DNA of 64,000 nucleotides from Planctomycetota bacterium (GTDB lineage: Bacteria > Planctomycetota > Phycisphaerae > WQYP01): NCBI GenBank assembly GCA_021785435.1, contig JAJYFE010000003.1:1-64000 (forward strand). The letters run 5' to 3'. The translations under genes were made by a program, and so were the position numbers. A model generated the notes under the pieces. That model did not search any database, was not told where the DNA came from, and was given only the letters and a program-made list of their open reading frames with translations. Below are positions 30,953-50,972 of this stretch, one piece after another (the stretch's first letter is position 1; each line of letters starts with the position of its first letter).

Positions 30953-30974
30953 AGATCACCGATGCTTTCTCACT

Positions 30975-32296: not shown

Positions 32297-32299
32297 GCT

Positions 32300-32908: not shown

Positions 32909-32912
32909 GGCC

Positions 32913-34357: not shown

Positions 34358-37300
34358 ATGATCGGGAGACAGGAGCCGATAACAGTGAACCAACCGCCAC
34401 CCATCCGGGAGGGCCAAACCATCACCGGTTCGCTGTTCAGTGAGCCGATGCGGGTGGTGACGGTTCGCACCGAGGGGCCTGACACCTGGATTGCCGGCCT
34501 GGTTGGCCTGCGGAGCCAACGATTTCACGAGGTCACACTGACCGCCGATCAAATCGCCAAGCTCACCATTCTCGATGCCGCGCTCAACTACGCCGGCGAC
34601 GGCCACTTGCTCCGCCTGGGCCTGCAGGCCTATGCGCTGGGCATCGCGTATGAATTCGATCCCTACTTTGGCCTGTCCATTTCCCGCGTGGATCCGCTGC
34701 CGCACCAGTTGGAGGCCGTGTACGACTATCTGCTGAAGCTCGCCCGCGTGCGTTTTCTGCTGGCCGATGACGCCGGGGCCGGCAAGACGATTATGGCCGG
34801 GCTGCTTATCCGCGAACTGGAACTGCGCGGCCTCGCCGAACGCATCCTGGTTGTTGCTCCGGCCAACCTGGCGTTCCAATGGCAACGGGAACTGCGGGAT
34901 AAATTCGAGGCGAAATTCGAGGTCATGCGGGGAACCGATATCCGGGAGCAGTTTGGCTTCAACCAATGGCAGGAAAAAAAGCGGATTATCACCTCACTGG
35001 ATCTGGCCAAACGCGACGACATATTGCCCGGCCTCGGGCAGGCGCACTGGGATCTGGTCATTGTGGATGAAGCCCACCGCATGTCGGCGTCTGATGAAAC
35101 CCACAAAAGCCTGCGCTATAAACTGGGCGAGCTACTCCGCGATACCACCGATCACCTGCTGTTGCTCACCGCCACGCCGCACAAAGGTAACCCTGAAAAC
35201 TTCAGCCTGTTTCTGCAACTGCTCGACCTCGATGCCTATGCGGACGTGAAATCCATCCGCCAGGCGATGGAGCGCCGCCGGGCGCCGTTCTATCTGCGCC
35301 GCACCAAGGAGGCCATGGTCTATTTCCCGCAGCGCCAAGCCGACGGCACCTGGGTGGCCCGGAAGATTTTCACCAAACGCATTCCGCACACCGTGGATTT
35401 TCAGATGGATGGGCCGGAGTTCAAGCTCTATCAGGAGGTCACGCGCTTTGTGAAACGGCACAGCGCCCGGGCGGCGGCGCAGGGGGATGACCCGCGCGCC
35501 CGCGCTGTGGGTTTTCTGATGTCGCTTTATCAGCGCCGGTTGGCCTCCAGCGCCTACGCCATGCGCCACAGCCTGGAAAACCGCGCCCACCGATTGGAAG
35601 ACGGCCTTAAGCATGCCCAGGAGTTGGCCCGCGGAGCGCCGCCGGATTTGCCGTCATCCGAAGAAATCGAAGAAATGGAGGACACCGAACGGGAGCGGCT
35701 GGAAAAAACGTTGGAAGCCATCACGCTGGCGGGTAATGCCGAACAGGTCCGCCTGGAAGTTCAGGAGCTGCGTGAACTTGCCGCCCAGGCCCGCACGGTG
35801 GAGGACGGCGGCGCTGAGGCGAAGCTGTCGCGCCTGAAAGAGCTGCTCCAGAAAGAGGGCTTTTTCGACCGGCCTGACCAGCGCCTGCTCGTGTTTACCG
35901 AGTTTAAGGACACGCTGGATTATCTGGTCGCCAGGTTCAAGGGCTGGGGCTTCAGGGTGGGGTGTATCCATGGCGGCATGAAGCCCGGCTCGCGTGATGA
36001 ACCCGGCACACGGCTCTTCGCCGAGCAGCAATTCCGCGATGGGGCGATTCAGATTTTGGTCGCCACGGAGGCCGCCGGCGAGGGGATCAACCTGCAGGTC
36101 TGCAACATCCTGTTTAACTACGATATCCCCTGGAATCCTAACCGCTTGGAACAACGGATGGGCCGGATTCACCGCTATGGCCAGCACAAGACGTGTCTCA
36201 TATTCAACTTCGTCGCGAGTAACACGATCGAGGGCCATGTTCTGCGGCGTCTGCTGGCCAAGTTGCAGGAAATACGGGACGCGCTCGATGATGACGCCGT
36301 CTTCAACGTGGTCGGCGAAGTGTTGCCGGCCGCGCACGTCGAAAAAGTGCTGCGCGATTATTACGCCGGTAAACTCGGCGATGGCGACCTGGAGGAGCGG
36401 CTGCTGAAAAATGTTGAAGAAGGCCAGTTCCGCGCCATCTGCCAAAACGCGCTGGAAGGCCTGGCCTCTAAAAAGCTCAATCTGCGGATGCTCGTGGAGC
36501 GCCGGGCCTTGGCCCAGGAACGCCGCATGGTGCCCGAAACCATCGCCCGTTTTATCCGCGAAGCAGCGCCCTATGCCCGGCTGGAGCTGAAAACGCTTTC
36601 CACCGTGCCGCATGCGTTCGAGCCGGGCCGCACGCCGCCGGCCTTACGCAGCTACGAACGCGCCCCGGATTGGCGGCTGCCGGCGCTTTCGATCAAGTAC
36701 CCGCGCTGCTCCACGGACCGCGAAGCGGCCGAGAAAAATTCCCTGGAATGGATCACGCCCGGCCATCCACTTTTCGAGGCTATACGGCGGCATACGTCGG
36801 ACCTGGCCGCGGACGCTCTTGGCAAGGGGGCCTGTTTTTACTCGCTGGAGCATGATACCCCGGTACGCCTTGACTTTTATCGCGCCCGCGTGGTGGACGG
36901 GCTTGGGCAGGTCATCCATGAACGGCTCTTCGCCGTGGAAGTGGCCGACGGCAAAGCCCCCGCCATCCGCGAGCCGGGGATCTTGGGCAATTTTACGCCA
37001 GCCCCGGCGCCGCACGATCTGCCTGCGGCAGCCCAGGAGCCGGAGCCAACGGCCTGGCTCCAGAAAACCGCGCTCCAGCCATTTCTGGAGGAAACCCGCC
37101 AAGAGCGGCTGGGGGAAATCGAACGCGTCGCCGAACACGTGAGGCTATCCCTGACCGAGCTCATGCAGAGAGCCGATGACGAAATCGGCAAAGCGGCTAA
37201 TGAGGTGGAGAAAAAGCTGCCCGGCGCGGAGGGGCGGCTTTCCCAGGCGGAAAACCGTCATGCCGAATTGCTGGCCCGCCGGGACCGCCGCCGCCGCGAA

Positions 37301-37798
37301 CTGGAGCGACAACGTTCGCTATCTCTGCAGGCCGTGGAGCGTCTGACCAGTGTTCTGGTTCTGCCGCATCCCGATCGGGATGCGCCGGAGGTGCGCAACC
37401 TCCGGCAAAATCTCCAGACCGAGGCCATCGCCATGCAGGCGGTGCTGGAGCACGAAAAGGCGCAAGGCCGGCAGGTTTATGACGTCCACGAGAAAAATCT
37501 CGGCTACGATATCACCAGTCTGGACTTAGATTCCGGCGAACTGCGGCTGATCGAAGTCAAAGGCCTCGGCGCGGAAAGCGGCTCGGTGCTGCTGACGCCC
37601 AATGAATTACGCGTCGCCCAGGACCGGCCCGAATGCTTCTGGCTCTACGTGGTCACGAACTGCAACGCCCAGCCGACCATTTTCCCACCGATCAAAAATC
37701 CCGCCCGCCTGCCCTGGGGCGAAGTGGTTAAGGTCCAGCACTATGCGATAACGCTTAAAGATATGCGAAGCAGCCTCTCCACGGAGGGAGCAAAATGA
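34358..37798 (+). CDS. SNF2-family helicase with C-terminal DUF3883 domain (defense helicase; DISARM DrmD-like)
   Basis: Walker A DDAGAGKT, DEAH box (VIVDEAHRM), motif VI QRMGRIHRYGQ; C-terminus GYDITSLDLDSGELRLIEVKG...FWLYVV matches DUF3883. Confidence 0.85.
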   Translation: MIGRQEPITVNQPPPIREGQTITGSLFSEPMRVVTVRTEGPDTWIAGLVGLRSQRFHEVTLTADQIAKLTILDAALNYAGDGHLLRLGLQAYALGIAYEFDPYFGLSISRVDPLPHQLEAVYDYLLKLARVRFLLADDAGAGKTIMAGLLIRELELRGLAERILVVAPANLAFQWQRELRDKFEAKFEVMRGTDIREQFGFNQWQEKKRIITSLDLAKRDDILPGLGQAHWDLVIVDEAHRMSASDETHKSLRYKLGELLRDTTDHLLLLTATPHKGNPENFSLFLQLLDLDAYADVKSIRQAMERRRAPFYLRRTKEAMVYFPQRQADGTWVARKIFTKRIPHTVDFQMDGPEFKLYQEVTRFVKRHSARAAAQGDDPRARAVGFLMSLYQRRLASSAYAMRHSLENRAHRLEDGLKHAQELARGAPPDLPSSEEIEEMEDTERERLEKTLEAITLAGNAEQVRLEVQELRELAAQARTVEDGGAEAKLSRLKELLQKEGFFDRPDQRLLVFTEFKDTLDYLVARFKGWGFRVGCIHGGMKPGSRDEPGTRLFAEQQFRDGAIQILVATEAAGEGINLQVCNILFNYDIPWNPNRLEQRMGRIHRYGQHKTCLIFNFVASNTIEGHVLRRLLAKLQEIRDALDDDAVFNVVGEVLPAAHVEKVLRDYYAGKLGDGDLEERLLKNVEEGQFRAICQNALEGLASKKLNLRMLVERRALAQERRMVPETIARFIREAAPYARLELKTLSTVPHAFEPGRTPPALRSYERAPDWRLPALSIKYPRCSTDREAAEKNSLEWITPGHPLFEAIRRHTSDLAADALGKGACFYSLEHDTPVRLDFYRARVVDGLGQVIHERLFAVEVADGKAPAIREPGILGNFTPAPAPHDLPAAAQEPEPTAWLQKTALQPFLEETRQERLGEIERVAEHVRLSLTELMQRADDEIGKAANEVEKKLPGAEGRLSQAENRHAELLARRDRRRRELERQRSLSLQAVERLTSVLVLPHPDRDAPEVRNLRQNLQTEAIAMQAVLEHEKAQGRQVYDVHEKNLGYDITSLDLDSGELRLIEVKGLGAESGSVLLTPNELRVAQDRPECFWLYVVTNCNAQPTIFPPIKNPARLPWGEVVKVQHYAITLKDMRSSLSTEGAK

Positions 37799-38844
37799 AA
37801 TCATTCGAGCACGGCTATCTATTGGATACGGCCATTTCCCACTCGCTACTGAGGTCGATGCGGGTATTGGGGGAATTTCGGGGCCGCGAGAATCTCTACA
37901 CTGAACAATTTCCAGAGGTTCTGGAAACGCTGCGGCAAGTCGCCCTCGTTCAAAGCGCTGAATCTTCCAATCGCATTGAGGGCATTACGGTCCTTCCCGA
38001 GCGCCTCGCCCCTCTGGTAACCAAGAAAACGCAGCCGCGTGACCGGTCGGAGCAGGAAGTGGCCGGTTATCGCGACGTACTGGCCGATATCCACTCCAAT
38101 CACGCGCGCTTGAAGTTATCCACGGACCTCATACTTCGCTGGCACCAGATGATCTACCACTACACCGGCGAGATAGGCGGCGCGTGGAAAACCGGCGACA
38201 ATGCCATCTTGGAAACGCGGCCCGAGGGTCGGCAGGTGGTGCGCTTCCGGCCTGTATCCGCCGTGGGCACGCCGCAGTTTATGCAGCGACTCGTGGAGCT
38301 TTTTCAGCAATCCCTGGCGGAAGCGAAAACCGACCCGCTCTTGCTGGTTGCCAGCGCCATCTTTGATTTTGAATGCATCCATCCATTCAAGGATGGCAAC
38401 GGGCGTATCGGCCGGTTGCTCACGCTTCTGCTGCTCTACCAGTGCGGCTACGAGGCCGGGCGCTATATCAGCCTTGAGCGCATCGTCGAGGAAAGCAAAG
38501 AGACTTACTACGAAGCTCTATATAAAAGCTCGCAGGGCTGGCACAACGGCGAGCATGACCTTCGCCCCTGGTGGGAATATTTCCTGGGCACGCTGATCGC
38601 CGCCTACAACGAGTTTGAATCCCGCGTGGGCACCCTAAGTGGCGCGCGCGGTGCCAAGCGGGAAATGGTGCGCCATGCCGTGGGTCGCCTGCCACAGCGA
38701 TTTACCGTCGGCGATTTGAAGCGAGTTTGCGGCGGTGTAAGTTACCCCACGTTGCAGCGGGCCCTGGCCGACATGCGACGCGAAAAGCTGCTGCGGTGCC
38801 TGGGTCGCGGTCCAGACGCCCAGTGGGAACGGATTGAGGGCTGA
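37795..38844 (+). CDS. Fic-family AMPylase (class II, internal inhibitory SxxxEG motif)
   Basis: HPFKDGNGRIGR Fic motif; upstream SNRIEG inhibitory-helix motif; C-terminal wHTH; ATGA overlap with helicase stop. Confidence 0.85.
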   Translation: MKSFEHGYLLDTAISHSLLRSMRVLGEFRGRENLYTEQFPEVLETLRQVALVQSAESSNRIEGITVLPERLAPLVTKKTQPRDRSEQEVAGYRDVLADIHSNHARLKLSTDLILRWHQMIYHYTGEIGGAWKTGDNAILETRPEGRQVVRFRPVSAVGTPQFMQRLVELFQQSLAEAKTDPLLLVASAIFDFECIHPFKDGNGRIGRLLTLLLLYQCGYEAGRYISLERIVEESKETYYEALYKSSQGWHNGEHDLRPWWEYFLGTLIAAYNEFESRVGTLSGARGAKREMVRHAVGRLPQRFTVGDLKRVCGGVSYPTLQRALADMRREKLLRCLGRGPDAQWERIEG

Positions 38845-38845
38845 T

Positions 38846-39436
38846 ATGATAATCTTATCACGAAGTGGACTGGTGATAAGAATGGATGGAAAAAGATCAC
38901 CAATGACGCTACTATCCCCCAGCCGCAAGATTGTCATCATCGCCGGGCCAAATGGGGCGGGGAAGACAACGTTCGCGGAAGAATTTCTACCGCTGGAGGC
39001 CGGCTGTCCCGATTTTATTAACGCCGACTTGATTGCCCGCGGCCTTTCGCCATTTGCGCCGGAGAGAGCGGCATTCGAGGCTGGACGGATCATGCTGGCA
39101 CTGATGGCGCGCAAGACCGCCGCAGGCGAAAGCTTCGCGTTTGAGACGACGCTCAGCGGTCGGAATTATGCCCACCGCATCGCGCAATGGCGTAAATCCG
39201 GCTACCATGTGAAACTGATCTTCCTGAGTGTGCCCTCGGTCGATCTGGCGGCAGCGAGGGTGCGAGCTCGCGTTGCGCAGGGCGGTCATAATGTCCCCGA
39301 AGATGTGATCCGGCGGCGGTTTAAATCCGGTCTCAAGAATTTCCATGCCACCTATCGTTCACTGGTGGATAGTTGGATTCTTTACGATAATTCCGTAAGG
39401 CCGCCGCGCGTCCTTGAATCAGGAGGAAACCCGTGA
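38846..39436 (+). CDS. Zeta-toxin-like P-loop kinase (AAA_33/zeta family)
   Basis: IIAGPNGAGKTT P-loop, ~195 aa, fold pattern of zeta/PezT-type kinases; overlaps fic stop. Confidence 0.6.
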   Translation: MIILSRSGLVIRMDGKRSPMTLLSPSRKIVIIAGPNGAGKTTFAEEFLPLEAGCPDFINADLIARGLSPFAPERAAFEAGRIMLALMARKTAAGESFAFETTLSGRNYAHRIAQWRKSGYHVKLIFLSVPSVDLAAARVRARVAQGGHNVPEDVIRRRFKSGLKNFHATYRSLVDSWILYDNSVRPPRVLESGGNP

Positions 39437-39645
39437 CCACACGAATGGATACGCAAGACCCCGACATCCTGGGATCGTTGCCGGCGCTGCGAAGGGCCGC
39501 GCACCGCGCTCGCCGCCTGGCCATCCGGACCGGTACGCCGTGCTACATCATGCGCCGAGGGAAAATAGTCAACATTGCCATAAAGCGCCGTGGCGGTGGC
39601 GCTGCGCCGCTACGGTCGCAAAGGCAAACTAAAAGCACCACCTGA
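39433..39645 (+). CDS. Small ORF (70 aa) translationally coupled to the zeta-like gene; possible cognate partner
   Basis: ATG overlaps zeta stop (ATGA); Arg-rich; no recognised family. Confidence 0.3.
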   Translation: MTTRMDTQDPDILGSLPALRRAAHRARRLAIRTGTPCYIMRRGKIVNIAIKRRGGGAAPLRSQRQTKSTT

Positions 39646-39712
39646 CGAAAAGGGGCCACAAAGCTCTGGAAGGGCAAAGGTTTGTGCTGGGCAGGCGAGG
39701 CGGGGAAGGCCG

Positions 39713-41329
39713 ATGAAAGTAGAAATCCCTCCAGACATAGAGGCGCTGATTTCCCGCAGCTATCCAGCGATTCTCGCGACCAAAATTCCGAAAGGCGAGA
39801 ATTTTGACGGTGATGCCGAGGAGCTGCAAACACGCGGTACAGCAATGGTCCGATGGTGTTACGGGATCGGGCTTGGGGGCCAGCAGCTGCCAGCCGGTGC
39901 ACTTTGCTTCCGGTTTACTGCATGCTCGAACCAAGACGGACAGGTCCAGCGGTTCAACGATTACTTCGCTGGCTGCGAACGCCGGAACAATTCACATGAG
40001 TGCGGAATCCCGATCGCGCACATTATCCTGCACATCCCGGGGCCCGATGGCAGCGAGGGTTGGGTCGGCGACTGCGACGGACTGCCGACGTTTAGAAAAT
40101 ATGACCAGTTCGGCTGGGTGCTGGAGGATTCCCTCCAATGGCTGCGCTGGTCGAGAGGCGGCATCGACGATAAGCAAAACGTCCAATCGCTCTGTACCTC
40201 GTGGGACCCGAATATCCACAAGCTCGCCGATTATCTGGGGAAAAACTTTGATCTATCCGGCAATAGCTTTGGGAAAGTGAAGATCGGTATCGCCAATCTG
40301 ACCAATGACTTGGCATCGAAACTTCTGTTCATCCCCGCTAATTCCGCCGGAGCCCATAAGCCCGTCCCCACGCAGGGCGACACCGAGGTCTTGAAGGAAT
40401 TTTACCGTCTTGATGCGGAGTTTTTACCATCCACTCTGAAGCTTCCCGATTGTGAAATCGCAAGCAGCCTGTTCGCCGCGTTGAGCTTCGCCTCCGGCCT
40501 ACGCCTCGGTTTTGCGGCTACCGTGGTTGTTCAAGGCGGCTGCCCGATCTTTCGTGAACTGCGGCCATGCCGAGGCGGCGTGACGGAGGCTCTGTGCGCC
40601 CCGACTGGCGAGGACGGGAATGCGGTAAAAAAGATCGCGTGGCTTTTTCTTCAGAGGCTGGCCGCTGACTTATCCCAGCTCTCACGGAACGATCCGCATT
40701 TCATGTGCACGCATCCGCTCGTCGGCGCTATCCAGAGAATTAACGAGGCGCTTTCCCGGCGCGGCGTGGAACATGGCGATGATCTCTACCTCACCCTCGA
40801 GCGGGCCTGCCTTTTGATCTCGGTGGCAATTGAGGCGGTCAGCAGGTGTTACGAGCCGAACGAAACTGGGGTGACTTGGCGGCCAACAAGAGAAAAGGGG
40901 GATGCTCGGGTCGAGAGGTGGATCGGCTCCAAGGCGTACGGATTGTGGGCCAGGTACCGCCACGCGCTCGCGCACCGGCTCAAGCTCATCGAGAACGATG
41001 CACCGAGCGCCAGTCGCCCTGGGGCGCGCGGCCAGGGCGCTGCCGCGCTCTCCGATGTCGTCCGCGCGTTTTTGGAGCGCGGCTCTGAGATTAACGGCCG
41101 GCTGCGCGACCTGTGGACCTATGAGCGGTTCCTGATGACGGCCTTTAACCATCTGGTACTGCGCGTCATCGGCTACGACGGCAAGGCAACTGATTGGATG
41201 GACAAGCCGGTGTCATTATACCAGATCAACGGTGGCAATGCACCGGCGCCCGAACTCAATAGTCTTAACAGAACTTTCTCGTCAGCGGACCAGCCCCGCG
41301 ACAGCACAGAAGCGGAGGGGCAACCTTGA
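39713..41329 (+). CDS. Hypothetical 538-aa protein, no recognisable domain, immediately upstream of and overlapping the MTase
   Basis: GGGGAAGG RBS then ATG at 39713; stop TGA overlaps TTG start of DUF1156 gene. Confidence 0.5.
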   Translation: MKVEIPPDIEALISRSYPAILATKIPKGENFDGDAEELQTRGTAMVRWCYGIGLGGQQLPAGALCFRFTACSNQDGQVQRFNDYFAGCERRNNSHECGIPIAHIILHIPGPDGSEGWVGDCDGLPTFRKYDQFGWVLEDSLQWLRWSRGGIDDKQNVQSLCTSWDPNIHKLADYLGKNFDLSGNSFGKVKIGIANLTNDLASKLLFIPANSAGAHKPVPTQGDTEVLKEFYRLDAEFLPSTLKLPDCEIASSLFAALSFASGLRLGFAATVVVQGGCPIFRELRPCRGGVTEALCAPTGEDGNAVKKIAWLFLQRLAADLSQLSRNDPHFMCTHPLVGAIQRINEALSRRGVEHGDDLYLTLERACLLISVAIEAVSRCYEPNETGVTWRPTREKGDARVERWIGSKAYGLWARYRHALAHRLKLIENDAPSASRPGARGQGAAALSDVVRAFLERGSEINGRLRDLWTYERFLMTAFNHLVLRVIGYDGKATDWMDKPVSLYQINGGNAPAPELNSLNRTFSSADQPRDSTEAEGQP

Positions 41330-44300
41330 TCCCCCAATCATGCAGACGTCTCGCCGAAGTGGATTTTCCGATTGCCGCGGTGTCGCGGCATTCGGTGCGG
41401 GAAAAGTCCATCCGGCACGGGCATCCATCCACGCTGCATTTATGGTGGGCGCGGCGGCCGCTGGCGGCGTGCCGAGCCGTGCTGATGGCACTGCTTTTGC
41501 CGGATCCGTGTGATACGCAATGCCCGCAAACGTTCAAAGCCGCGGCACGGCAAATCTTATTGGCGTTTCCGGAGCGGCCCTCGCGCTGGGACCAGGATAT
41601 CCAAAGCGACGAACGCCTGCGCCATGTTCTGCTGCATGAATTCATCGCCGATTTCGCCAACTGGGATCATGCCGCTAATCCGGCGTATCTGAAGACGGCA
41701 CGTGACCTGGTCAAGGCCGCCCATCCGGAAGAAACGCCGCTGGTGGTTGACCCCTTCGCCGGCGGCGGCTCGATTCCACTGGAAGCGTTGCGCATCGGCT
41801 GCGATGCCTTCGCCAGTGATTTGAATCCCGTGGCGTGCCTGATCCTGAAAGTGATGCTGGAGGATATTCCGCGGGAAACCCGCCGCAGAGGCGCGGAGAA
41901 CGCCGAATCATTGGCGGATGAACTCCGCCGAGTGGGGAAGCAGATAAAAGAGGAGGTGGAAAAGGAAGTCGGCGATTTGTACCCCAAAGATCCCGACGGC
42001 GCCACACCGATTGCGTATCTCTGGGCGCGGACGGTTAAATGCGAAGCGCCCAACTGCGGCGCGGAAATACCGCTGGTGCGGTCGTTCTGGCTGTGCAACA
42101 AACCGAACCGCAAACGGGCGCTGCGGTACACGGTGGTTCGTTGTGGCACGGGCTTCCAGCCCGTGAGGGAGGGAAACGGCCATGGGCACGATGCCCATGC
42201 CACCGTTGAGTTCGGAAACGGCCATGGGCAGGATGCCCATGCCACCGTTGAGTTCGAGATTTTCGAGCCGAAATCGGAAAAAGACGTTCCCGCCGGCACC
42301 GTGACGCGGGCCAAGGCGACCTGTCTATGCTGCGGGGCGGTTTTGCCGCCGCAGCGCGTGCGCGCGCAATTGGCCGCCCAGCGCGGCGGCGCGGATGTGA
42401 TATTTGCTTCTGACGCGGGCGATTGTGGCACGGGCTTCCAGCCCGTGATGGATGGAAATGACCATGGGCAGAACGCCCATGCCACCACCATCCAGAAACG
42501 CCGCGGCGCCTACCTGCCGCACTGGACACGCGAGGGGGCGACCTACAGCGTAACCTTTCGGCTCGCCGACAGCCTGCCGGCCAAGGTGCTCGCGGCGTGG
42601 GTCGGGGAGCGTGAGGATATCGTCAAAAGGGCAGCGACCATGGGCCGGCCGCTCACCGACGACGAAATGCGGCGCCTGGACGAGTTGCATTCGCAGCGTA
42701 TCGAAAAGTACCTTGACTCCGGCGCCGGCGAGTGCCAACTGAGGGACCCGCGGATCGCGAATATCGTTCGTGATTCGCTTCTGCATTTTGACGGCGACAG
42801 GTATGACCTGGCCGTATGGTGTGTCATGCCAAACCACGTACACGTGGTAGTTCGGCCCCGCCCCGGCCACGAACTGTCTGATATCCTCCACTCCTGGAAA
42901 AGTTTCACGGCGACAAAAGTCAACCGGCTGCTCGGCCGCACCGGTGCTTTCTGGCAGCCGGAATGTTACGACCACCTGATCCGCGACTGGGATGAACTCG
43001 CGCACGCTGTCGAGTACGTAATGGACAACCCGGGCAAGGCTGGCCTGCGGGATTGGCCCTGGGTCGGCCGCGGCACGGGCTTCCAGCCCGTGATGAACGG
43101 AAATGACCATGGGCAGGATGCCCATGCCACGACGCATGTGCCGCAACGCGTTGCTGGCGCGCGGATGTTGGCCGTGGTGACGCTCAAGCCCGGCCAGCCG
43201 GGCCGGCATTATCGCCTGCCAACCCCACCTGATTATCAGGCCGTCCGGAAGGCGCAGGATCGGCTCAAGGCCATTCTCGACGAATGGGAGCGGGGCGGGA
43301 AGAAGGGGCTTTGCCCCGTGCCGGATGAGCCGACGCCCGCCGGCGGTGGCTCCGGTGCCGGCCGCGCCTTCAGCGTCCAAAAATACGGCATGCTCCAGTG
43401 GGGCGACCTTTTCACGGCGCGGCAGAAGGTGACGCTGGTGCCCCTGGCGGCCGGCGTTGGCGCCGCAGCTCGCGAAAATCCAGCCTTGTCGAAGCTGTTA
43501 GCGTGCGCGCTGGGCATATTTGCGCGATCATGCAATGGTAACGCACGCATGCACCCGAACAGCTCCGTTGCGCCAGCCTTCGGAATGCAGACGCTTCCCA
43601 TCACCTGGACTTTCCCTGAGACAGTCATATCCGGCGGACGATCAGAGCACTTTGATGGAGCCCTCCGGCTTGTTGGGGACGCGCTCGACGGCCCCGGTAT
43701 CCCGGCGCGCAGCGGCGGGCAAGTTGAGCAGGCTGACGCGTCGGAAGTTCCCCTCCCCAGCGGCTCATCCAGCGCGTGGTTCACGGACCCGCCATACTAC
43801 GACGCCATCCCCTATTCCGATCTTTCGGACTTCTTCCTGGCGTGGCTCAAGCGCTGCCTTCCGGGCAACGGCGGCCTGCGCGACCCGTTCGACCCCGCCA
43901 ACAGGTTATCACCGAAATTACGCGAGGCCGTCCAGGACGAAACCAAAGTGGACAGCGGCCGACCAAAGGACCGTGCATGGTTCGAGGAGAAAATGGCGGC
44001 GGCTTTCGCCGAGGGCCGCCGTATTCTCCGTGACGACGGGGTCGGCTGCGTGGTATTTGCGCACAAGACCACCGAAGGCTGGGAAGCCCTGCTCTCCGGT
44101 ATGACCCGCGGCGGCTGGACGGTCACCGGTTCCTGGCCCATCGCCACGGAAATGAGCTCGCGCCTGCGCGCCCGCGACTCCGCCGCCCTTGCCACCAGCG
44201 TGCACCTTATCTGCCGCCCGCGGCCGGATGACGCGCCGGTGGGCGATTGGGGCGAGGTTCTGCGCGAATTGCCCAAACGCGTTGGCGACTGGATGGAACG

Positions 44301-45192
44301 GCTGCAAGGCGAAGGCATTCGCGGGGCGGATTTGGTGTTTGCCTGCATCGGACCGGCGCTGGAAATTTTCAGCCGCTACCGCAAGGTTGAAACCGCCGAT
44401 GGTCGGGAAGTGAAATTGGCCGAATACCTGGAAAAAGTCTGGGAAGTGGTTGGCCGTACGGCGTTGGAAAACGTCTTAGGCTCGGCGGAGGCGAAAGTGC
44501 GTAACGGCGCCGCGGGGGCATTGGAAGAAGATGCCCGGCTGACGGCCCTGTTTCTGTGGGCACTGCAAAGCACGGATGTTAAAGCCCCAGCCGATCGGTC
44601 CGATCCGTCCGGTTCGTCTGATGACGCCGAGGCCGACGAAAACGACGATGAGGACGCCTCCGCGCCTCGGCGTTCCAGCGGCTTTTCGCTCGTTTTTGAC
44701 GTCGTCCGCCGGTTCGCCCAGCCATTGGGGGTAGACCTTTCCAAATGGGAAGGGCGGATCATCCAGACCAGCAAAGGCGTGGTGCGGCTTCTGCCGGTTG
44801 GCGAACGGGCCAAGCAGCTCTTTGGCGAAGAAGGCGCCGCGGTGATGGCCAGCCGGCTGGAAAGCTGGGCCGATCCACAGCAAACGCTGTTTCCAAAAAA
44901 TGAGGCCGACTCACCGCGGAGGCGCGGAGGACGCGGAGCTGAAAAAAGCATTCGGGAGGAGGAAGCTTTGCGGATTCGTGGTGAAATCCAGGCCACCACG
45001 CTGGACCGCGTTCACGCCGCCATGCTGCTGCAGGCCGGCGGCCAGACCAACGGCCTGCGCGCCCTGATTAAGGCCGAACAGCAACGCGGCCCGGATTTCC
45101 TGCGGCTGGCCAATGCCCTGTCGGCGCTTTATCCTTCTGACAGCGAAGAAAAGCGATTATTGGATGCCATGCTGTTGGCCGTGCCGAGGTAA
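41326..45192 (+). CDS. DUF1156-family N6-adenine DNA methyltransferase (DrmMI/PglXI-like) carrying in-frame REP and RAYT insertions
   Basis: N-terminus ...VREKSIRHGHPSTLHLWWARRPLAACRAV is the DUF1156 signature; MTase motif I VVDPFAGGGS and motif IV TDPPYY; 1288 aa versus ~1000 expected. Confidence 0.8.
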   Translation: MIPQSCRRLAEVDFPIAAVSRHSVREKSIRHGHPSTLHLWWARRPLAACRAVLMALLLPDPCDTQCPQTFKAAARQILLAFPERPSRWDQDIQSDERLRHVLLHEFIADFANWDHAANPAYLKTARDLVKAAHPEETPLVVDPFAGGGSIPLEALRIGCDAFASDLNPVACLILKVMLEDIPRETRRRGAENAESLADELRRVGKQIKEEVEKEVGDLYPKDPDGATPIAYLWARTVKCEAPNCGAEIPLVRSFWLCNKPNRKRALRYTVVRCGTGFQPVREGNGHGHDAHATVEFGNGHGQDAHATVEFEIFEPKSEKDVPAGTVTRAKATCLCCGAVLPPQRVRAQLAAQRGGADVIFASDAGDCGTGFQPVMDGNDHGQNAHATTIQKRRGAYLPHWTREGATYSVTFRLADSLPAKVLAAWVGEREDIVKRAATMGRPLTDDEMRRLDELHSQRIEKYLDSGAGECQLRDPRIANIVRDSLLHFDGDRYDLAVWCVMPNHVHVVVRPRPGHELSDILHSWKSFTATKVNRLLGRTGAFWQPECYDHLIRDWDELAHAVEYVMDNPGKAGLRDWPWVGRGTGFQPVMNGNDHGQDAHATTHVPQRVAGARMLAVVTLKPGQPGRHYRLPTPPDYQAVRKAQDRLKAILDEWERGGKKGLCPVPDEPTPAGGGSGAGRAFSVQKYGMLQWGDLFTARQKVTLVPLAAGVGAAARENPALSKLLACALGIFARSCNGNARMHPNSSVAPAFGMQTLPITWTFPETVISGGRSEHFDGALRLVGDALDGPGIPARSGGQVEQADASEVPLPSGSSSAWFTDPPYYDAIPYSDLSDFFLAWLKRCLPGNGGLRDPFDPANRLSPKLREAVQDETKVDSGRPKDRAWFEEKMAAAFAEGRRILRDDGVGCVVFAHKTTEGWEALLSGMTRGGWTVTGSWPIATEMSSRLRARDSAALATSVHLICRPRPDDAPVGDWGEVLRELPKRVGDWMERLQGEGIRGADLVFACIGPALEIFSRYRKVETADGREVKLAEYLEKVWEVVGRTALENVLGSAEAKVRNGAAGALEEDARLTALFLWALQSTDVKAPADRSDPSGSSDDAEADENDDEDASAPRRSSGFSLVFDVVRRFAQPLGVDLSKWEGRIIQTSKGVVRLLPVGERAKQLFGEEGAAVMASRLESWADPQQTLFPKNEADSPRRRGGRGAEKSIREEEALRIRGEIQATTLDRVHAAMLLQAGGQTNGLRALIKAEQQRGPDFLRLANALSALYPSDSEEKRLLDAMLLAVPR
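42143..42256 (+). repeat. REP-like composite hairpin cluster inside the MTase gene, in-frame (35 codons)
   Basis: Hairpin A GGCACGGGCTTCCAGCCCGTG plus duplicated hairpin B GGCCATGGGCA(C/G)GATGCCCATGCC followed by accgttgagttc twice. Confidence 0.6.
42425..43140 (+). mobile_element. REPtron: REP-associated tyrosine transposase (RAYT / IS200-like Y1 TnpA) flanked by same-orientation REP hairpin units, inserted in-frame in the MTase gene
   Basis: HUH motif VMPNHVHVVV and ...FWQPECYDHLIRDWDELAHAVEYVMDNPGKAGL (catalytic Tyr); REP units 42425-42484 and 43082-43140; possible ATG at 42448; no stop before the MTase resumes. Confidence 0.65.
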
Positions 45193-45200
45193 AGGACCTA

Positions 45201-46276
45201 TGTTGCGATTCGAACACATCAACATTCGTGGGTTCAAGTCCATTGAGCGATTGGAGGATTTCGCGCTCGGGCAGCTCAACGTCCTCATTGGCGCCAACGG
45301 TGCGGGTAAAAGCAACTTTGTGGAGTTCTTCCGGCTCCTCGGGGCGATCCGCCAAGGGCGGCTGCGAGCGTACATGGAGCGAAATGCCCCGGCGGACGGC
45401 TATTTCTACAAGGGCATAAAGCAAACCCGGCGCCTTGAGGCCGCGCTGGATTTCGGCATGGGCAACGGATACAGCTTCTGCCTTGAGCCGACCGCGGACG
45501 GAGGCGTGCTCATTGGGGATGCGACAGACTACCGTGGGCTAGGCGGTCAAAGTCCCGAGGTCGGCCATGCGTACCCAGTGAACGACCGGGAATCGCAGAG
45601 CGCTTCGTTCTGGATGGCGCCTGGAGTGCCTGATTGGCAGGTTTATCACTTCCACGACACCAGCGCAACCGCCGGCATGCGCCGCGAAGCCGGCGTCGAT
45701 CAGGCGGAAGCCCTGGCTCCGAACGGCGATAACCTGGCGGCGTTCCTCTTGGCCCTGCGTGCGCACCACGGTGAAAGCTATCAGCTCCTACGCCAGACGG
45801 TGCAGCGAGTGATGCCGCATTTCGATGACTTTGACCTTCGGAAGCGCGATGGGAAAAACGAGGAACTGGTCCGGCTGACCTGGCGTCAGAAAGGCTCGGA
45901 CTATATCTTCCAACCGGGCCACCTTTCGGACGGCACCATTCGCTTTATCTGTCTGGCCACCGCGCTGCTGCAACCCAACCCACCCGCGACCGCCGTTTTT
46001 GACGAGCCGGAACTGGGGCTGCACCCGGAAGCGCTGGTTATTCTGGCCGGCCTGTTTCGGTCGGCGTCAGCTCGGATGCAGATCATCGTGGCCACGCAGT
46101 CGCCGGTTTTGCTGAATGAATTCGAGCTGGCGGATGTGATCACCGTCGACAACGTCCAGGGCGCGACGCAGTTTAACCGGCTCGATAAAGAAGCCCTGCG
46201 CCAGTGGCTGGAGGACTACACCCTCGGCGACCTGTGGCAAAAACGAACGCTGCGTGGAGGCGTGAACCATGCTTGA
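45201..46276 (+). CDS. AAA/ABC-type ATPase (AAA_21-like), AbiLi-like
   Basis: Walker A GANGAGKSN, Walker B AVFDEPELGLHP; 358 aa; 8 bp after MTase stop. Confidence 0.8.
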
Positions 46277-46955
46277 GGTGCTGGTGCTTTGCGAGGGTCA
46301 GACCGAACGGGAATTTTGTAACGGCCTGCTCAGCCCCCGCTTGGCCGAACACGGGGTCGCTATGAGGGCTACGTTACGTGGCAAGCCGCAGCGGAAACGC
46401 GGTGGAATGTGCGGATGGGATGTGTACCAACGGGAGTTGATCCGTCTGCCCGGTGGGCGGAGGGACTGTCACGTGGCGGTGCTGGCCGATTATTACAAAA
46501 TGGATGGCACCTGGCCCGGCCGCCCGGAAGCCCCGAAGCGAGACCCGCTTGAAAGGGGGCGGTTTGTGGAGCAGTCGTTGCGTCAGGCGATGGAGCCAAG
46601 ACTCGGATCGCGGTTCCATCCGTGCGTAGCACTGCACGAATTTGAAAGTCTGATGTTCGTCTCGCCGCGGATATCGGCCGACACCCTCAGTCGGGCCGGA
46701 TCGGGCGGCCATTCCGCCGGCCTGGCGAAGGACCTCGCCGCGGTAGTCGCCGAATTCGACGGCTCGGTGGAACTTATCAACGACTCCGAAGTCGGCGCGC
46801 CGTCCAAGCGGCTCCAGCAGCTTGTGCCTGGTTATGATAAGGTCGTTTTCGCAACGCTGGTCGCCGGCGCCGTCGGTATCGACAATCTGCGTAAGGGGTG
46901 CCCATGGCTTGACCGCTGGCTTGACGGATTGGAAAAATGCGCCAGCCAGCGATGA
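46269..46955 (+). CDS. DUF4276-family protein (AbiLii-like)
   Basis: MLEVLVLCEGQTEREF N-terminus typical of DUF4276; overlaps ATPase stop by 8 bp. Confidence 0.7.
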   Translation: MLEVLVLCEGQTEREFCNGLLSPRLAEHGVAMRATLRGKPQRKRGGMCGWDVYQRELIRLPGGRRDCHVAVLADYYKMDGTWPGRPEAPKRDPLERGRFVEQSLRQAMEPRLGSRFHPCVALHEFESLMFVSPRISADTLSRAGSGGHSAGLAKDLAAVVAEFDGSVELINDSEVGAPSKRLQQLVPGYDKVVFATLVAGAVGIDNLRKGCPWLDRWLDGLEKCASQR

Positions 46956-47121
46956 GGTTGCGGAGTAGCGGCAGGCGAAAACTCAATTGCCTTGGCCGAC
47001 CACGGTGGTAGGGCCGCCGGACCGCGGTCAATCGCCACCTCGGCGGCAAGAGAACGGCGCCCTCGGGGGCGAACGTGCCCCCGACTGGCCAAGGCGGTCC
47101 TGGCGCTTTATCCTGACGGTT

Positions 47122-47466
47122 ATGAGAACGCGCCGAAAACAGGGCGTTGCCACCGCCTCTTTGATCCGCCGCATGGTCCGGCGGATGGTGGAGCAATTCC
47201 ACCCGGAACAAGTCATTCTCTTCGGCTCGTATGCCCGCGGCGACGCCAGACCCGACAGTGACGTGGATTGACTGGTGGTGATGGAGGTACAGGGGGCGAA
47301 GCGGGAGAAGGTGCTGGAGATACGGAGGGCTTGGGGTGGGTTCGAGGTGGCGGAGGACGTGCTGATAAGCCGCCCCGCGGAGTTCGCGTGGCGCAGGCTA
47401 TACCCCGGCACCATCGAACGGCCGGCCCATCTGGAAGGAAAGGTGCTGTATGCCCGGCACCGGTGA
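47122..47466 (+). pseudogene. Minimal nucleotidyltransferase (MNT, HEPN/MNT antitoxin type) with in-frame TGA at 47269-47271
   Basis: ...ILFGSYARGDARPDSDVD*LVVMEVQG...: GSxARG/DxD NTase motif, then TGA exactly where Leu of DVDLLVV is expected, then the rest of the MNT domain in the same frame. Confidence 0.65.
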
Positions 47467-47615
47467 TCTTACTGTGGTCGTCGCGGAATGGGTAGCCAAG
47501 GCAGAGGGCGACCTTAAAACTGCCGTGCACACCTTGAAGTTGGGGCCGGAATGTCCGACGGAAACTGTCGCATTTCACGCCCAGCTGTGCCACGGGGATG
47601 TTCACCGCGGAGGGC
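47450..47615 (+). pseudogene. HEPN-domain toxin N-terminal fragment, truncated by the downstream GxxExxY gene
   Basis: ...VAEWVAKAEGDLKTAVHTLKLG...VAFHAQ matches the HEPN N-terminal helix; sequence after AFHAQ is replaced by the start of the next gene. Confidence 0.45.
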
Positions 47616-48035
47616 GCAGAGGAAAGCGACAGGCAGGACCTGACGGGAAGGATAATCGGGGCGGCCATTGAAATCCACAAGACGATTGGGCCTGGACTGC
47701 TGGAATCCGCCTACGAAGAATGTATTGCCCATGAGATGAACCTTCGGGGTTTGAACTTTGACCGGCAACGGCCGGTTCCCGTTGCCTATAAGGACGTGGG
47801 ATTGGATTGCGGATACCGCCTGGACTTTTTAGTTGAAGAGGCTGTCGTGCTCGAACTAAAGGCAGTTGAGGCAATCCAACCCATTCACGAAGCCCGGTTA
47901 TTGACCTGTCCGAAGCTCGGGGGTTGGATCGTCGGCTTGTTGATCAATTTCAATGTTCCAGTTCTCAAATCCGGCATCAGGCGCGTTGTTCTTGATTATA
48001 AAGAGCCCTCTGCGTGCTCCGCGCCTCCGCGGTGA
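47598..48035 (+). CDS. GxxExxY-family protein (PD-(D/E)XK-like nuclease superfamily)
   Basis: IIGAAIEIHKTIGPGLLESAYEECIAHEM...DCGYRLDFLVEEAVVLELKAV...LLINFNVPVLKSGIRRVV, matches the GxxExxY family. Confidence 0.8.
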   Translation: MFTAEGAEESDRQDLTGRIIGAAIEIHKTIGPGLLESAYEECIAHEMNLRGLNFDRQRPVPVAYKDVGLDCGYRLDFLVEEAVVLELKAVEAIQPIHEARLLTCPKLGGWIVGLLINFNVPVLKSGIRRVVLDYKEPSACSAPPR

Positions 48036-48047
48036 ATGGAGTTGATC

Positions 48048-50972
48048 ATGGAACCCTGGTACAAAATCACCACGCCGCGTAAGGAAGTGCGCGAAGGCCG
48101 GTCGTTCAACCCGGATGAATTCGCCATCCACTTAGAGCAGGTCATCGGCAAAACCGCGCCGGAAGATTACCGTGACCCGAAGCAATTTTTCGCCCGGACC
48201 TGCTTCACGCGGGCATTGCGCGAACATGCGGGTATGGTGCTGCGCCGGCTGGCCGGAGAGACCGTAAACACGGCGCCGGTGATGACGCTGATTACCCAGT
48301 TCGGCGGCGGCAAAACCCACACCCTGACGGCCCTTTACCACCTGGCGGTCAGCGGGGCCAAAGCGGCGGATTATCCCGGCATTGGCCAGCTGATAGGCCA
48401 AGCCGGCCTGGCCGCTGTGCCGGAGGCGCGGGTCGCGGCGTTCGTGGGCAACGCCTGGGACCCGAAAGCTGGCCGTGAAACGCCATGGATTGATATCGCC
48501 TGGCAGTTGGCCGGTGAAAAGGGTGTGGCCGAATTAGGAAACTCCGCCCAGACTACGCCGCCGGGGACGGAGGCGCTCCATCGCGTCTTTAAGGCGGCCC
48601 ATGCGCCGGTGCTGCTGCTGTTTGACGAGGTGCTTAATTTTCTCAATCGCCACCGGGGCATGGCCGATCAATTCCATGCTTTCATTCAGAATTTGACCGT
48701 GGCGACCACCGGCGCCACGCGCGGCGCCGCGGTGATCAGCCTGCCGCGGAGCCAGGTGGAAATGACCGATTGGGATATGCAGTGGCAGGACAAGATCACC
48801 AAGGTCGTCCGGCGCGTGGCCAAGGACCTGATTGCCAACGATGAGGCGGAAATCAGCGAGGTGGTGCGGCGCCGGCTTTTTGAGGATCCCCAGACCGAGG
48901 AAGCCCGCCAAACCCTGGAACGGGCGCGGAAAACCGCCGCCCGGATCTATGCCGACTGGTGTTTTGAACGCCGGGCGCAACTGCCGCCGGAATGCACCGC
49001 GGTGGATACCTCCACCACCCAGTCCAAGGCCAGGGATTTCCTGCGCGGCCGCTTCGAGGCCTGCTATCCATTTCATCCGGCTACGCTCTCGGTGTTCCAG
49101 AGAAAATGGCAGTCGCTGTCCCAGTACCAGCAGACGCGCGGCACGTTGGCCATGCTGGCCCAGTGGATTTCCTGGGCTTACAAGGATGGCTATGCGCACG
49201 CCCGGCGCGAGCGGCTGCTTACCCTCGGCTCGGCGCCGCTGCAGGTGCAGGAGTTCCGCGCGGTGGTGCTGGGGCAGTTGGGAGAGTCACGCCTGGAGGC
49301 AGCCATCGGCGTGGACATTGCCGGCGAGCAAGCCCACGCCCGCGCCCTTGATGCGGACGCCAAAGGAGCGCTGAAGGACATTCACCGCCGGGTGGCGACG
49401 GCGATATTCTTTGAGTCGTCCGGCGGTCAGATTGACAAAGTGGCCCATCTGCCGGAGCTGCGTTTCGCGCTCGGCGAGCCGGAAGTGGAAACCACCACGG
49501 TGGACAGCGCGGTGCGCGCCCTGGAGGATCGGTCGTATTACATTCGCACCGTTGGCTCGGACGGTTTTCGCATCGGTTACGAACCCACGATGAAAAAGGT
49601 GGTCAGCGACCGCCGGGCGTCGCTGGATGAAGAATCCGAAATCAGGCCCGCCATGCGGAAACTCGTCGAAGAGCAGTTCCGCCGGGGGGCCAGCGTACCG
49701 GTCATTCCCTTCCCGGCGGACGGGGCAGCCGTCCCGGACAATCCGAAGCTGACCCTGGTGATCCTGGACCCGACGCAGGAATGGACGGGCAATGGAGTCT
49801 GGCGCGAACAGCTTGCCCAGTGGACGCGCCAGCGCGGCCAATCGCCCCGGCTCTATCCGGGCGCGTTGGTCTGGTGCCTGAAGAAGCCCGGCCGCGATCT
49901 GCGCGAAAGCGTAGAGCTTTGGCTGGCGTGGAAGCGCGTGGAGCGGGAGATGGCGGAAGGAACGCTTGGCGAAGCCCGCGAGCGCGCTGAGTCGGCTGAA
50001 CTTCATTCGAAGGTGGTGGCGGCCGAGGCGGCGGCCAAAGACGAAGTGTGGGGCGGATACCGTTTCGCCGTCCTGGCCGAGGCCAGGGAGTCGGTCGCCG
50101 AAGGAGGCGACTCAACAAGGCAAGGCGGCCTGAAAGTTATAGACCTCGGTGCCGGCCATTCCTCCAGCGGCGAGACGCTGTGCGGCCGGGTTATCACCGC
50201 TTTGAAATCCCAGGCGATTCTGAGCGAATCGGTCGGCGCGGGCTATATCGAACGCAACTGGCCGCCGGCGCTCAAAGAAGCTGGAGCCTGGCCGCTGGCC
50301 AGCCTGCGACAGAGCTTTTTGAACGGCGCCCTGACGCGTCTACTGGACCCGGATGCCACCTTGCGTGGCAAAATCGTCGAATTCGTCAGCAAAGGTGATT
50401 TCGGTCTCGCCTCTGGCCCGCAGCCGGGCGGCGGCTACGAGCGCCTCTGGTACGCCGAGTTGCTGGCCCCGGACGAGGTCGCCTTTGAACCGGGCGTATT
50501 TCTGCTGACCAAAGCCAAGGCCCAGGCGATCAAGAATATTGCCGAGGCAGAATGGTTTGCCGTCAGGGGCGACGGCGCCGCATCCGCTCGCCCCGCCAGC
50601 GGGCGGGCAGGCTTTGTCGAGTCGTCTCCTTCGGCGACCGGCGGGGGCATCCGCTCGGGCGAGCTTTTCAGACCGCAAGCCGGAAACGAAGAGGTCCAAA
50701 CCAAAGGCGGGCAACCGGAAGCCGCCTGCCCGGCGGAGTCCGCCGCAACCGAGGCGCGTAAGAACTATCGGATCGTCGGCCAGGTGCCGCCGGAGCTTTG
50801 GAACCGTCTCGGCACACGGATCTTGCCCAAGCTGCGCAGCGCCGGCGCGGAGCTGCACGTCGGCGTCGAGTTCCAGATCGCCGTGGAGCCGCACGCCGCT
50901 ACCGCGTTCGAGTCCGACATTCATCAGATCCTCGCCGATCTCGGTCTGACCGGCCAGGTGCGAGTGGAATAA
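48048..50972 (+). CDS. DUF499-family ATPase (predicted defense-system component)
   Basis: N-terminus MEPWYKITTPR... and LITQFGGGKTHTLTALYHL (DUF499 P-loop signature); 975 aa. Confidence 0.8.
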   Translation: MEPWYKITTPRKEVREGRSFNPDEFAIHLEQVIGKTAPEDYRDPKQFFARTCFTRALREHAGMVLRRLAGETVNTAPVMTLITQFGGGKTHTLTALYHLAVSGAKAADYPGIGQLIGQAGLAAVPEARVAAFVGNAWDPKAGRETPWIDIAWQLAGEKGVAELGNSAQTTPPGTEALHRVFKAAHAPVLLLFDEVLNFLNRHRGMADQFHAFIQNLTVATTGATRGAAVISLPRSQVEMTDWDMQWQDKITKVVRRVAKDLIANDEAEISEVVRRRLFEDPQTEEARQTLERARKTAARIYADWCFERRAQLPPECTAVDTSTTQSKARDFLRGRFEACYPFHPATLSVFQRKWQSLSQYQQTRGTLAMLAQWISWAYKDGYAHARRERLLTLGSAPLQVQEFRAVVLGQLGESRLEAAIGVDIAGEQAHARALDADAKGALKDIHRRVATAIFFESSGGQIDKVAHLPELRFALGEPEVETTTVDSAVRALEDRSYYIRTVGSDGFRIGYEPTMKKVVSDRRASLDEESEIRPAMRKLVEEQFRRGASVPVIPFPADGAAVPDNPKLTLVILDPTQEWTGNGVWREQLAQWTRQRGQSPRLYPGALVWCLKKPGRDLRESVELWLAWKRVEREMAEGTLGEARERAESAELHSKVVAAEAAAKDEVWGGYRFAVLAEARESVAEGGDSTRQGGLKVIDLGAGHSSSGETLCGRVITALKSQAILSESVGAGYIERNWPPALKEAGAWPLASLRQSFLNGALTRLLDPDATLRGKIVEFVSKGDFGLASGPQPGGGYERLWYAELLAPDEVAFEPGVFLLTKAKAQAIKNIAEAEWFAVRGDGAASARPASGRAGFVESSPSATGGGIRSGELFRPQAGNEEVQTKGGQPEAACPAESAATEARKNYRIVGQVPPELWNRLGTRILPKLRSAGAELHVGVEFQIAVEPHAATAFESDIHQILADLGLTGQVRVE

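Follow-up and report, generated by a model that had tools for sequence, protein, structure and literature searches.

We analyzed a 64,000-nt stretch of DNA from a Planctomycetota bacterium (contig JAJYFE010000003.1 of assembly GCA_021785435.1; hereafter the window), in which positions 34358–50972 of the + strand hold an unbroken row of co-oriented open reading frames (ORFs). A preliminary description, made from the letters alone, had singled out three large + strand ORFs in this row (34358–37798, 41326–45192 and 48036 or 48048 to 50972) as a possible defense core split by inserted modules. All three are present at these positions, and we name them hmaA, hmaB and hmaC:

34358–37798, + strand: hmaA, RapA-like Swi2/Snf2 translocase with a C-terminal NOV_C/DUF3883 PD-(D/E)XK nuclease, 1146 aa
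41326–45192, + strand: hmaB, DUF1156 amino-methyltransferase, 1288 aa from a TTG start (usual length about 985–1015 aa)
48036–50972, + strand: hmaC, DUF499 STAND/ORC-like ATPase, 978 aa, without an N-terminal HEPN fusion; probable start at 48048

We are confident that the locus is a complete Hma (helicase, methylase, ATPase) system, that is, a Type-1 DUF499-centred BREX-related system, which carries other defense cassettes in both of its intergenic slots. Hma was defined by Payne et al. (2021) with 1,638 loci in 26 phyla (PMC8565338). The same trio was re-described by Rakesh and Krishnan (2026) as DUF499-centred BREX-related (BR) systems of three types, homologous to BrxC, BrxXI and BrxHII of type-3 BREX (PMC12839542). 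In PADLOC, the best full-length matches of the three proteins are HmaA (2e-173), HmaB (4e-96, aligned in three stretches) and HmaC (2e-91), each above the DrmD, BrxH, DpdE and PglX models. Since the ORFs are about 1000 aa or longer and the E-values lie below 1e-90, the trio is not a chance assembly.

The domain assignments of the preliminary description (an SNF2 helicase with a DUF3883 tail, a DUF1156 methyltransferase with intact motifs, and a DUF499 P-loop ATPase) were borne out when the hidden Markov model searches it had proposed were run with Pfam and PADLOC. HmaA matches SNF2-rel_dom, Helicase_C and NOV_C/DUF3883, and the PADLOC HmaA model spans its residues 16–1100; RapA is the best sequence match of the helicase core in the PDB, and the C-terminal PD-(D/E)XK signature GYD...IEVK is conserved. 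HmaB matches DUF1156 (1e-22) and retains motif I (VVDPFAGGGS, aa 140–149), motif IV (TDPPYY, aa 820–825) and the cysteines of its Zn-finger insert, the target-recognition domain (TRD), in the arrangement CxxxxC...CxCC; its frame runs from 41326 to 45189 free of in-frame stops. HmaC matches DUF499 (1.5e-13) and, over residues 5–679, the PADLOC HmaC model, with Walker A FGGGKT and Walker B LLLFDE. The start at 48048 preferred in the preliminary description (MEPWYK, preceded at 7 nt by GGAG) is no less likely than that at 48036. Each hma gene is single-copy, on the same strand and not a pseudogene, and the trio recurs in related loci (L122, L124, L125, L001 and L130). Within the BR classification, the helicase with its C-terminal PD-(D/E)XK nuclease and an HmaC devoid of the optional N-terminal HEPN place the locus in Type 1; the marks of Types 2 and 3 (an HKD domain on the helicase, DUF3780, PglZ, iSTAND) gave no Pfam or PADLOC match on any locus gene. 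Three NCBIfam models, DUF1156_antiphage, DUF499_antiphage and phospholipD_antiphage, matched far under their cut-offs and were left out of the assignment; presumably they were built on another subfamily.

Payne et al. (2021) worded HmaB as a 5-methylcytosine (m5C) methyltransferase (PMC8565338). The DPPY motif, the DUF1156 family and the PADLOC label "DNA-adenine methylase" indicate instead that HmaB is an adenine (amino) methyltransferase. Its residues 670–686 (about 43333–43385 of the window) vary in their own right: strain variants that are 98% identical (P0124–P0126) alternate between PAGGGSGAGRAFSVQK and PPIGTLGFRVQR, and both forms are found across the wider HmaB family, which suggests recombination of a short cassette.

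The pairing of a helicase with a methylase also recalls other systems, and one could read the locus as a degraded class-1 DISARM or type-3 BREX of which only the helicase (DrmD/BrxHII) and the methylase (DrmMI/PglXI) are left. The kinship pointed out in the preliminary description is real homology: DrmD (4e-119) and BrxH (4e-107) are the second-best PADLOC models for the helicase, NCBIfam DISARM_DrmD matches at 1.5e-104, the trio has counterparts in BrxC, BrxXI and BrxHII, and BR and BREX type-3 proteins have been described as homologous (PMC12839542). However, the Hma models score far higher and over the full length, DrmD reaches 351 bits in NCBIfam under a cut-off of 610, and PglX/PglXI match the methylase at a mere 4.7e-4. 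No DrmA, DrmB, DrmC, PglZ, BrxA or BrxB domain was found by Pfam or PADLOC in any locus gene, in line with the earlier remark that DrmA/B/C and PglZ are lacking, so that membership of either system fails; moreover, relatives have these three genes as a unit too. We consider such a remnant highly improbable. With BREX type 3, the locus shares a homologous ATPase, an N6-methylase with a TRD insert, a RapA-like helicase and, presumably, a logic of sensing, modifying and restricting; it differs in having no PglZ, BrxA or BrxB/F, in the PD-(D/E)XK domain of its own on the helicase, in the DUF1156 N-terminus of the methylase and in an ATPase of the DUF499 rather than the DUF6079 type. With class-1 DISARM, it shares a DrmD-related Snf2 helicase and an adenine methylase; it differs in having no DrmA, DrmB or DrmC and in a DrmD match under the cut-off. 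In all three proteins and the domains that compose them, in strand and gene order, and in carrying embedded defense genes, the locus is like described Hma (Type-1 BR) systems. What differs here is that each gap holds at least four ORFs, that hmaB is enlarged by insertions of a transposase and its repeats, and that one embedded pair of genes belongs to no described family.

The genes between the core genes lie on the same strand and are unrelated to them, as had been described, with gap 1 at 37795–41329 and gap 2 at 45200–48035. In gap 1 we find:

37795–38844, + strand: Fic-domain protein (Pfam Fic 3e-17), SoFic-like, with intact HPFKDGNGRIGR motif
38846–39436, + strand: zeta-toxin-like P-loop kinase (Pfam AAA_33 3e-10, Zeta_toxin 9e-10), GPNGAGKTT; start as in the gene call in L130
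39433–39645, + strand: 70-aa ORF without Pfam match
39713–41329, + strand: 538-aa protein of no family

And in gap 2:

45200–46276, + strand: HEC-01A, ABC-type ATPase (AAA_21; PADLOC HEC-01A 9e-123)
46269–46955, + strand: HEC-01B, DUF4276, TOPRIM-like (PADLOC HEC-01B 1e-54, Pfam DUF4276 4e-33)
47122–47466, + strand: pseudogene of an MNT-type nucleotidyltransferase, with an in-frame TGA at 47269–47271
47450–47600, + strand: N-terminal stump of a HEPN gene, about 45 residues (EWVAKAEGDLKTAVHTL...FHAQ), read from the ORF translation
47601–48036, + strand: GxxExxY mini-element of 436 bp with terminal inverted repeats; sole gene GxxExxY/PDDEXK_3 at 47598–48035

The stops and starts of neighboring genes overlap or abut at 37795–37798, 38844/38846, 41326–41329, 46269–46276 and 48035/48036. 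The cargo probably shares the transcription of the scaffold as well as its strand; a scan for promoters and terminators gave no enrichment and was uninformative on operon structure. The Fic, zeta-like kinase, 70-aa plus 538-aa pair and HEC-01 A/B genes are best seen as separate, exchangeable defense cargo. The embedded Fic gene is a member of the Fic family by its motif and domain; with regard to SoFic, PADLOC gives 3e-40 and the NCBIfam SoFic equivalog model 61 bits with a cut-off of 550. HEC-01A and HEC-01B are adjacent with an 8-nt overlap, as befits a HEC-01 pair, and the order of an AAA_21 ABC ATPase followed by a DUF4276/TOPRIM-like protein between hmaB and hmaC is that of HEC-01, with no sequence-level differences seen; an ABC ATPase with a TOPRIM protein (HEC-01) is among the commonest Hma cargo (Payne et al. 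2024, bioRxiv 10.1101/2024.01.29.577857). The start of HEC-01A had been placed at 45113; the true start is the ATG at 45200, 8 nt past the hmaB stop and preceded by an AAGGA ribosome-binding site.

The MNT-HEPN pair in gap 2 is decayed. The nucleotidyltransferase gene is a pseudogene, in which the Pfam NTP_transf_2 match covers model positions 2–35 before the stop and the frame resumes at 47275–47466. The HEPN stump gave no Pfam match. Intact MNT-HEPN pairs occur in the Hma gaps of L122, L124 and L125; the pair here is dead. The GxxExxY element appears to have cut the HEPN gene. Its gene is well supported (Pfam PDDEXK_3 7e-37, NCBIfam GxxExxY 6e-39), its ends carry imperfect terminal inverted repeats of about 22–30 nt (TTCACCGCGGAGG... 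and ...CCTCCGCGGTGAA), and its right end falls exactly at the start region of hmaC. Repeats related to the ends of this unit also lie in frame in hmaB, at 41884 and 44915.

The 538-aa protein has no match in Pfam, PADLOC or NCBIfam, and its homologues form only three clusters among 5.8 billion proteins. The 70-aa ORF lies ahead of each 538-aa homologue whose contig includes upstream DNA (L127–L130; L126 begins too near the gene), and one other copy of the pair is also directly upstream of an hmaB gene. The 538-aa gene shows a ratio of nonsynonymous to synonymous substitution rates (dN/dS) of 0.40 against L127. An AlphaFold2 model of the protein built with its three homologues reached a mean confidence (pLDDT) of 33 and was unusable. 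The 70-aa plus 538-aa pair may be a new Hma-embedded defense system.

Embedding of this kind is the rule in the family. Of 1,485 Hma loci, 62.7% were reported to carry embedded genes, with 96.7% co-oriented, and this "guilt by embedding" was used to find new defenses (Payne et al. 2024, bioRxiv 10.1101/2024.01.29.577857); a second survey found insertions in 66.5% of Hma loci (Liu et al. 2024, PMC11232893). The preliminary description had left open whether the locus is a poorly characterized system or a landing pad for defense cargo and had proposed checking synteny and co-occurrence. Both of its readings were right, but the novelty was overrated, the system having already been named and surveyed: the locus adds another member to the described Hma systems, whose embedding behavior is likewise already described. 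The order hmaA-hmaB-hmaC is kept with differing cargo in L122, L124, L125, L001, L127 and L130. Thus, L122 reads hmaA, a 128-aa ORF, MNT, HEPN, hmaB, DUF433, hmaC; L124 reads hmaA, MNT, HEPN, hmaB, hmaC; and L125 reads hmaA, MNT, HEPN, DUF3800, a Gabija-like pair, a 429-aa ORF, hmaB, two small genes, hmaC. The closest scaffold is that of L001 (identity of 100% over the last 29 aa of hmaA, 88% in Fic, 84% in hmaB and 96% at the N-terminus of hmaC), in which the cargo differs in both gaps, gap 1 having further genes and gap 2 nothing but one DUF8426 gene. In L127, hmaB is 96% identical and is preceded by a HEC-01-like pair, a kinase remnant and a 70-aa plus 523-aa pair. Judged from these relatives, the cargo turns over on a nearly unchanged scaffold. 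All three hma genes are under purifying selection, with dN/dS values between 0.11 and 0.26 (hmaA 0.11 against L122, hmaB 0.19–0.26, hmaC 0.13–0.15).

HmaB exceeds its normal length by about 300 aa as a result of in-frame insertions of repetitive extragenic palindromic (REP) sequences and of a REP-associated tyrosine transposase (RAYT). We placed the insertion sites by alignment to the insertion-free homologue P0009:

42139–42249, + strand: site 1, REP doublet, in frame in the HmaB Zn-ribbon hairpin; hairpin 1 and two 42-nt hairpin-2 units
42424–43134, + strand: site 2, REP-RAYT-REP unit, in frame in hmaB; RAYT core at 42490–43067

In total hmaB holds four copies of a 64-nt two-hairpin repeat, the hairpins of site 1 being confirmed by folding (z = -3.5), and a complete RAYT-type Y1 transposase lies between copies 3 and 4 in the hmaB frame. 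Its HUH (PNHVHVV) and tyrosine (VEYVMDNP) motifs are intact; it matches Pfam Y1_Tnp (7e-6, 26.5 bits with a cut-off of 23) and NCBIfam REP_Tyr_transpos (1e-20, 73.6 bits, just under the cut-off of 80). Seen as a REPtron, the unit has the Y1 transposase motifs and the flanking multi-copy hairpin repeats, but it departs from the extragenic location and separate ORF expected of a REPtron, being in frame inside hmaB. No copy of the hairpin repeat was found elsewhere in the 64-kb window. In P0002, the homologue with an 84% identical hmaB, different REPs occupy both sites, without a RAYT, and strain variants of 98% identity have one to three copies of the 42-nt hairpin unit, in each case in frame. 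Both the GxxExxY unit and the REP/RAYT insertions are selfish elements of small size that the island carries along. The window also has four copies of a third hairpin family, GTCGCCTCCTTCGGCGAC, at 33316, 50094 (-), 50621 and 53056 (-): two are intergenic, and two, inverted, are read in the hmaC frame within its variable C-terminal part, as ESVAEGGDS and VESSPSA.

This heavy load of small mobile elements raises the question of whether the scaffold is dead, that is, whether the island is decaying and its genes now serve only as a landing pad, hmaB having lost its activity to the REP/RAYT insertions. The nonsense codon in the MNT gene, the truncation of HEPN and a split integrase in the neighboring element would fit such decay, as would the position of the hmaB insertions in the Zn-ribbon/TRD region. 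However, the three hma ORFs are intact, catalytic motifs included, and their low dN/dS values also speak against it. Four strain variants (98% identical) hold an hmaB frame of 1270–1298 aa, although they differ by 42 nt or multiples thereof. About 25 of the 120 best HmaB homologues tolerate a RAYT at the same loops, and their catalytic half at the C-terminus stays in frame. Finally, in the AlphaFold2 model of HmaB the flanking host elements are folded with confidence, and the REP-coded peptides between them are low-confidence linkers. We therefore regard a dead scaffold as unlikely.

Following the published model (PMC12839542), the Hma system would work in a manner similar to restriction-modification. 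HmaB, with its Zn-ribbon target-recognition insert, would methylate host DNA as a mark; HmaC, with variable C-terminal winged-helix and RRM-like domains, would scan or recognize DNA and assemble the complex; and HmaA, combining a RapA-like translocase with a PD-(D/E)XK nickase, would be the effector that translocates along and nicks unmarked invader DNA. We infer the methylation-based discrimination of self from non-self, the role of HmaC and the activity of the present copy. Halomonas HmaA alone protects Escherichia coli from phage T4, and both its helicase and nuclease residues are needed (PMC11232893).

Several points weigh against a complete system that couples the three proteins in this way. 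Over-expressed HmaB left the sensitivity of T4 to HmaA unchanged, and 15–20% of hmaA loci have no hmaB or hmaC (PMC11232893); on these two grounds, a restriction-modification-like coupling is unproven. The roughly 300 extra residues in the Zn-ribbon/TRD region could impair the present HmaB. HEC-01, here counted among the defense cargo, gave no protection in published E. coli assays (Payne et al. 2024, bioRxiv 10.1101/2024.01.29.577857). The locus also falls outside the published PADLOC survey rule of at most three embedded genes between neighboring hma genes, both gaps holding at least four ORFs (in gap 2, HEC-01A, HEC-01B, the MNT pseudogene, the HEPN stump and GxxExxY). An automatic call might thus miss the system; the rule is a search threshold and not a biological criterion.

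The first of these points bears on the idea that the genes are neighbors rather than parts of one machine, with HmaA a self-sufficient helicase-nuclease and HmaB and HmaC one or more separate modules. HmaA alone is sufficient against T4, methylation by HmaB had no effect there, and the authors of that work suggested that HmaB and HmaC may act independently (PMC11232893). Against this stand the tight co-occurrence of the three genes, with their order conserved across phyla despite constant turnover of cargo, and the homology of the trio to the BrxC/BrxXI/BrxHII triad, which works together in BREX type 3 (PMC12839542). That HmaA is not toxic without HmaB is compatible with both views. Weighing these, we think it rather doubtful that the three proteins act separately, and we favor a complete Hma system with embedded cargo.

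The locus sits in a genomic island next to tRNA-Leu. As noted in the preliminary description, a small integrative element lies just upstream, with exact 86-nt direct repeats of the whole tRNA at 29662–29747 and 33620–33705 flanking 3.9 kb. The features at the two borders are:

29659–29745, + strand: tRNA-Leu(UAA) copy 1 (ARAGORN), left end of the small integrative element
29685–33224, - strand: genes of the integrative element (Pfam), called likewise in a second assembly, L130
29685–30332 and 30368–30952, - strand: integrase, split in two ORFs (194 aa and 215 aa)
30975–31271, - strand: ParE
31237–31641, - strand: Phd
32300–32938, - strand: Prim-Pol
32913–33224, - strand: HTH_17
33618–33702, + strand: tRNA-Leu(UAA) copy 2 (ARAGORN), right end of the element, about 650 nt upstream of hmaA
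50987–51233, + strand: 72-nt tandem repeat (Tandem Repeats Finder), 3.4 copies with 94% matches, between the hmaC stop and the 3' end of cysC
51214–51951, - strand: cysC, adenosine 5'-phosphosulfate (APS) kinase (Pfam 7e-63)

Since the integrase is split in two independent assemblies, the tRNA-Leu element is probably immobile. A search of the island's right edge for a third attachment (att) repeat derived from tRNA-Leu gave nothing; the right boundary is placed approximately at the 72-nt repeats before cysC. Each unit of these repeats has a terminator-like hairpin and a T-run, with terminator-like matches at 51122 and 51194. The flank beyond them (51214–60276) is chromosomal and devoted to sulfur metabolism, with APS kinase, an AprA-like flavoprotein and QmoA/QmoB-like HdrA-type proteins with an MvhD domain.

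Insertions like those in hmaB are widespread. The RAYTs found in HmaB homologues belong to two subfamilies with several different cognate REP flanks. The insertions are in frame at three recurrent loop sites, RAYTs mostly at site 1, and other homologues carry a GIY-YIG nuclease (two) or a DUF559 nuclease (one). The nearest neighbors of RAYT-bearing HmaB proteins are mostly RAYT-free, which implies repeated gain or loss. In L124 (10761–11482) and L125 (9181–9702), the RAYT flanks are true DNA repeats, including GTAG-tagged REPs, and a scan of viral contigs for RAYT insertions in hmaB returned seven loci.

We considered whether the insertions are specific to HmaB and rejected this, as many unrelated proteins contain this hairpin and this RAYT family in frame. 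More than 120 exact copies of hairpin 1 occur in species-representative genomes, in many cases several in one metagenome-assembled genome, mostly in Planctomycetota and also in Verrucomicrobiota, Hydrogenedentota, Acidobacteriota and Thermodesulfobacteriota. Many of these copies are in frame within long ORFs, for instance that of leucyl-tRNA synthetase; contexts read by eye (L013, L021, L029, L062 and L108) resemble leucyl- and valyl/isoleucyl-tRNA synthetases, an FGGY kinase and flavoenzymes of the old yellow enzyme type, and P0136 is valyl-tRNA synthetase-like. A HMMER search with the RAYT segment gave 975 representatives at E ≤ 1e-30. Among the best 150 matches (P0127–P0276), 59 are of at least 450 aa, with the RAYT mostly internal and in few cases at one end, a share of long proteins that is inflated by clustering at 50% identity, in which each host forms its own cluster. 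By Pfam, the hosts of the long matches include Eco57I, MmeI, Type ISP and N6 methylases and DinG/XPD-type helicases, as well as alanyl- and class-I tRNA synthetases, MetH-like enzymes and IspG.

REPs inside genes have been described before (Di Nocera 2013, PMC3733652). These too are short palindromic repeats in frame in permissive loops of long proteins, adding 10–40 residues, with DNA-metabolism enzymes and tRNA synthetases as frequent hosts; the difference is that HmaB here, and those of its homologues that bear a RAYT, hold a whole REP-flanked RAYT gene and not REPs alone. Our literature search for RAYTs or REPtrons inserted in frame yielded reports of intragenic REPs but none of whole RAYT units. 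One RAYT survey had dropped "unexpectedly long" RAYTs as fusions or errors.

Rickettsia palindromic elements, attributed to Ogata (2000), are reportedly another case of short palindromic repeats in frame in proteins. Inteins with their homing endonucleases place a selfish nuclease-type gene in frame in proteins that the cell cannot do without, in which any imprecise loss is fatal. The HmaB insert is alike in being a selfish element with a nuclease-type gene in frame in a protein of this kind; it differs in having no splicing motifs, and it seemingly remains part of the mature protein, adding a domain with disordered linkers. The simplest explanation for the pattern is survivorship, whereby insertions into indispensable genes persist only if they lie in loops, keep the frame and bring no stop codon; the RAYT family reads through its own REPs, which makes in-frame fusions easy. 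It is possible, and we put it forward tentatively, that these cases represent an undescribed lifestyle of REP/RAYT elements, in which the whole element sits in frame in permissive loops of indispensable genes, production of the host protein continues and the transposase is translated as one of its internal domains. The hosts in such a lifestyle may comprise defense and restriction-modification methylases, tRNA synthetases and repair helicases.

For the Hma family, the locus shows turnover of cargo on a near-identical scaffold and indicates that the three-embedded-gene limit can miss real systems. The rare 70-aa plus 538-aa pair is a candidate for guilt-by-embedding tests. The in-frame RAYT, GIY-YIG and DUF559 genes bear on the persistence and spread of REP/RAYT elements, on the tolerance of methylases to insertions and on annotation, such proteins now being discarded as fusions or errors. 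If the lifestyle proposed above is real, it would amount to an intein-like niche without splicing, in which the addictive methylase of a mobile Hma island would serve the element as both a safe harbor and a vehicle.

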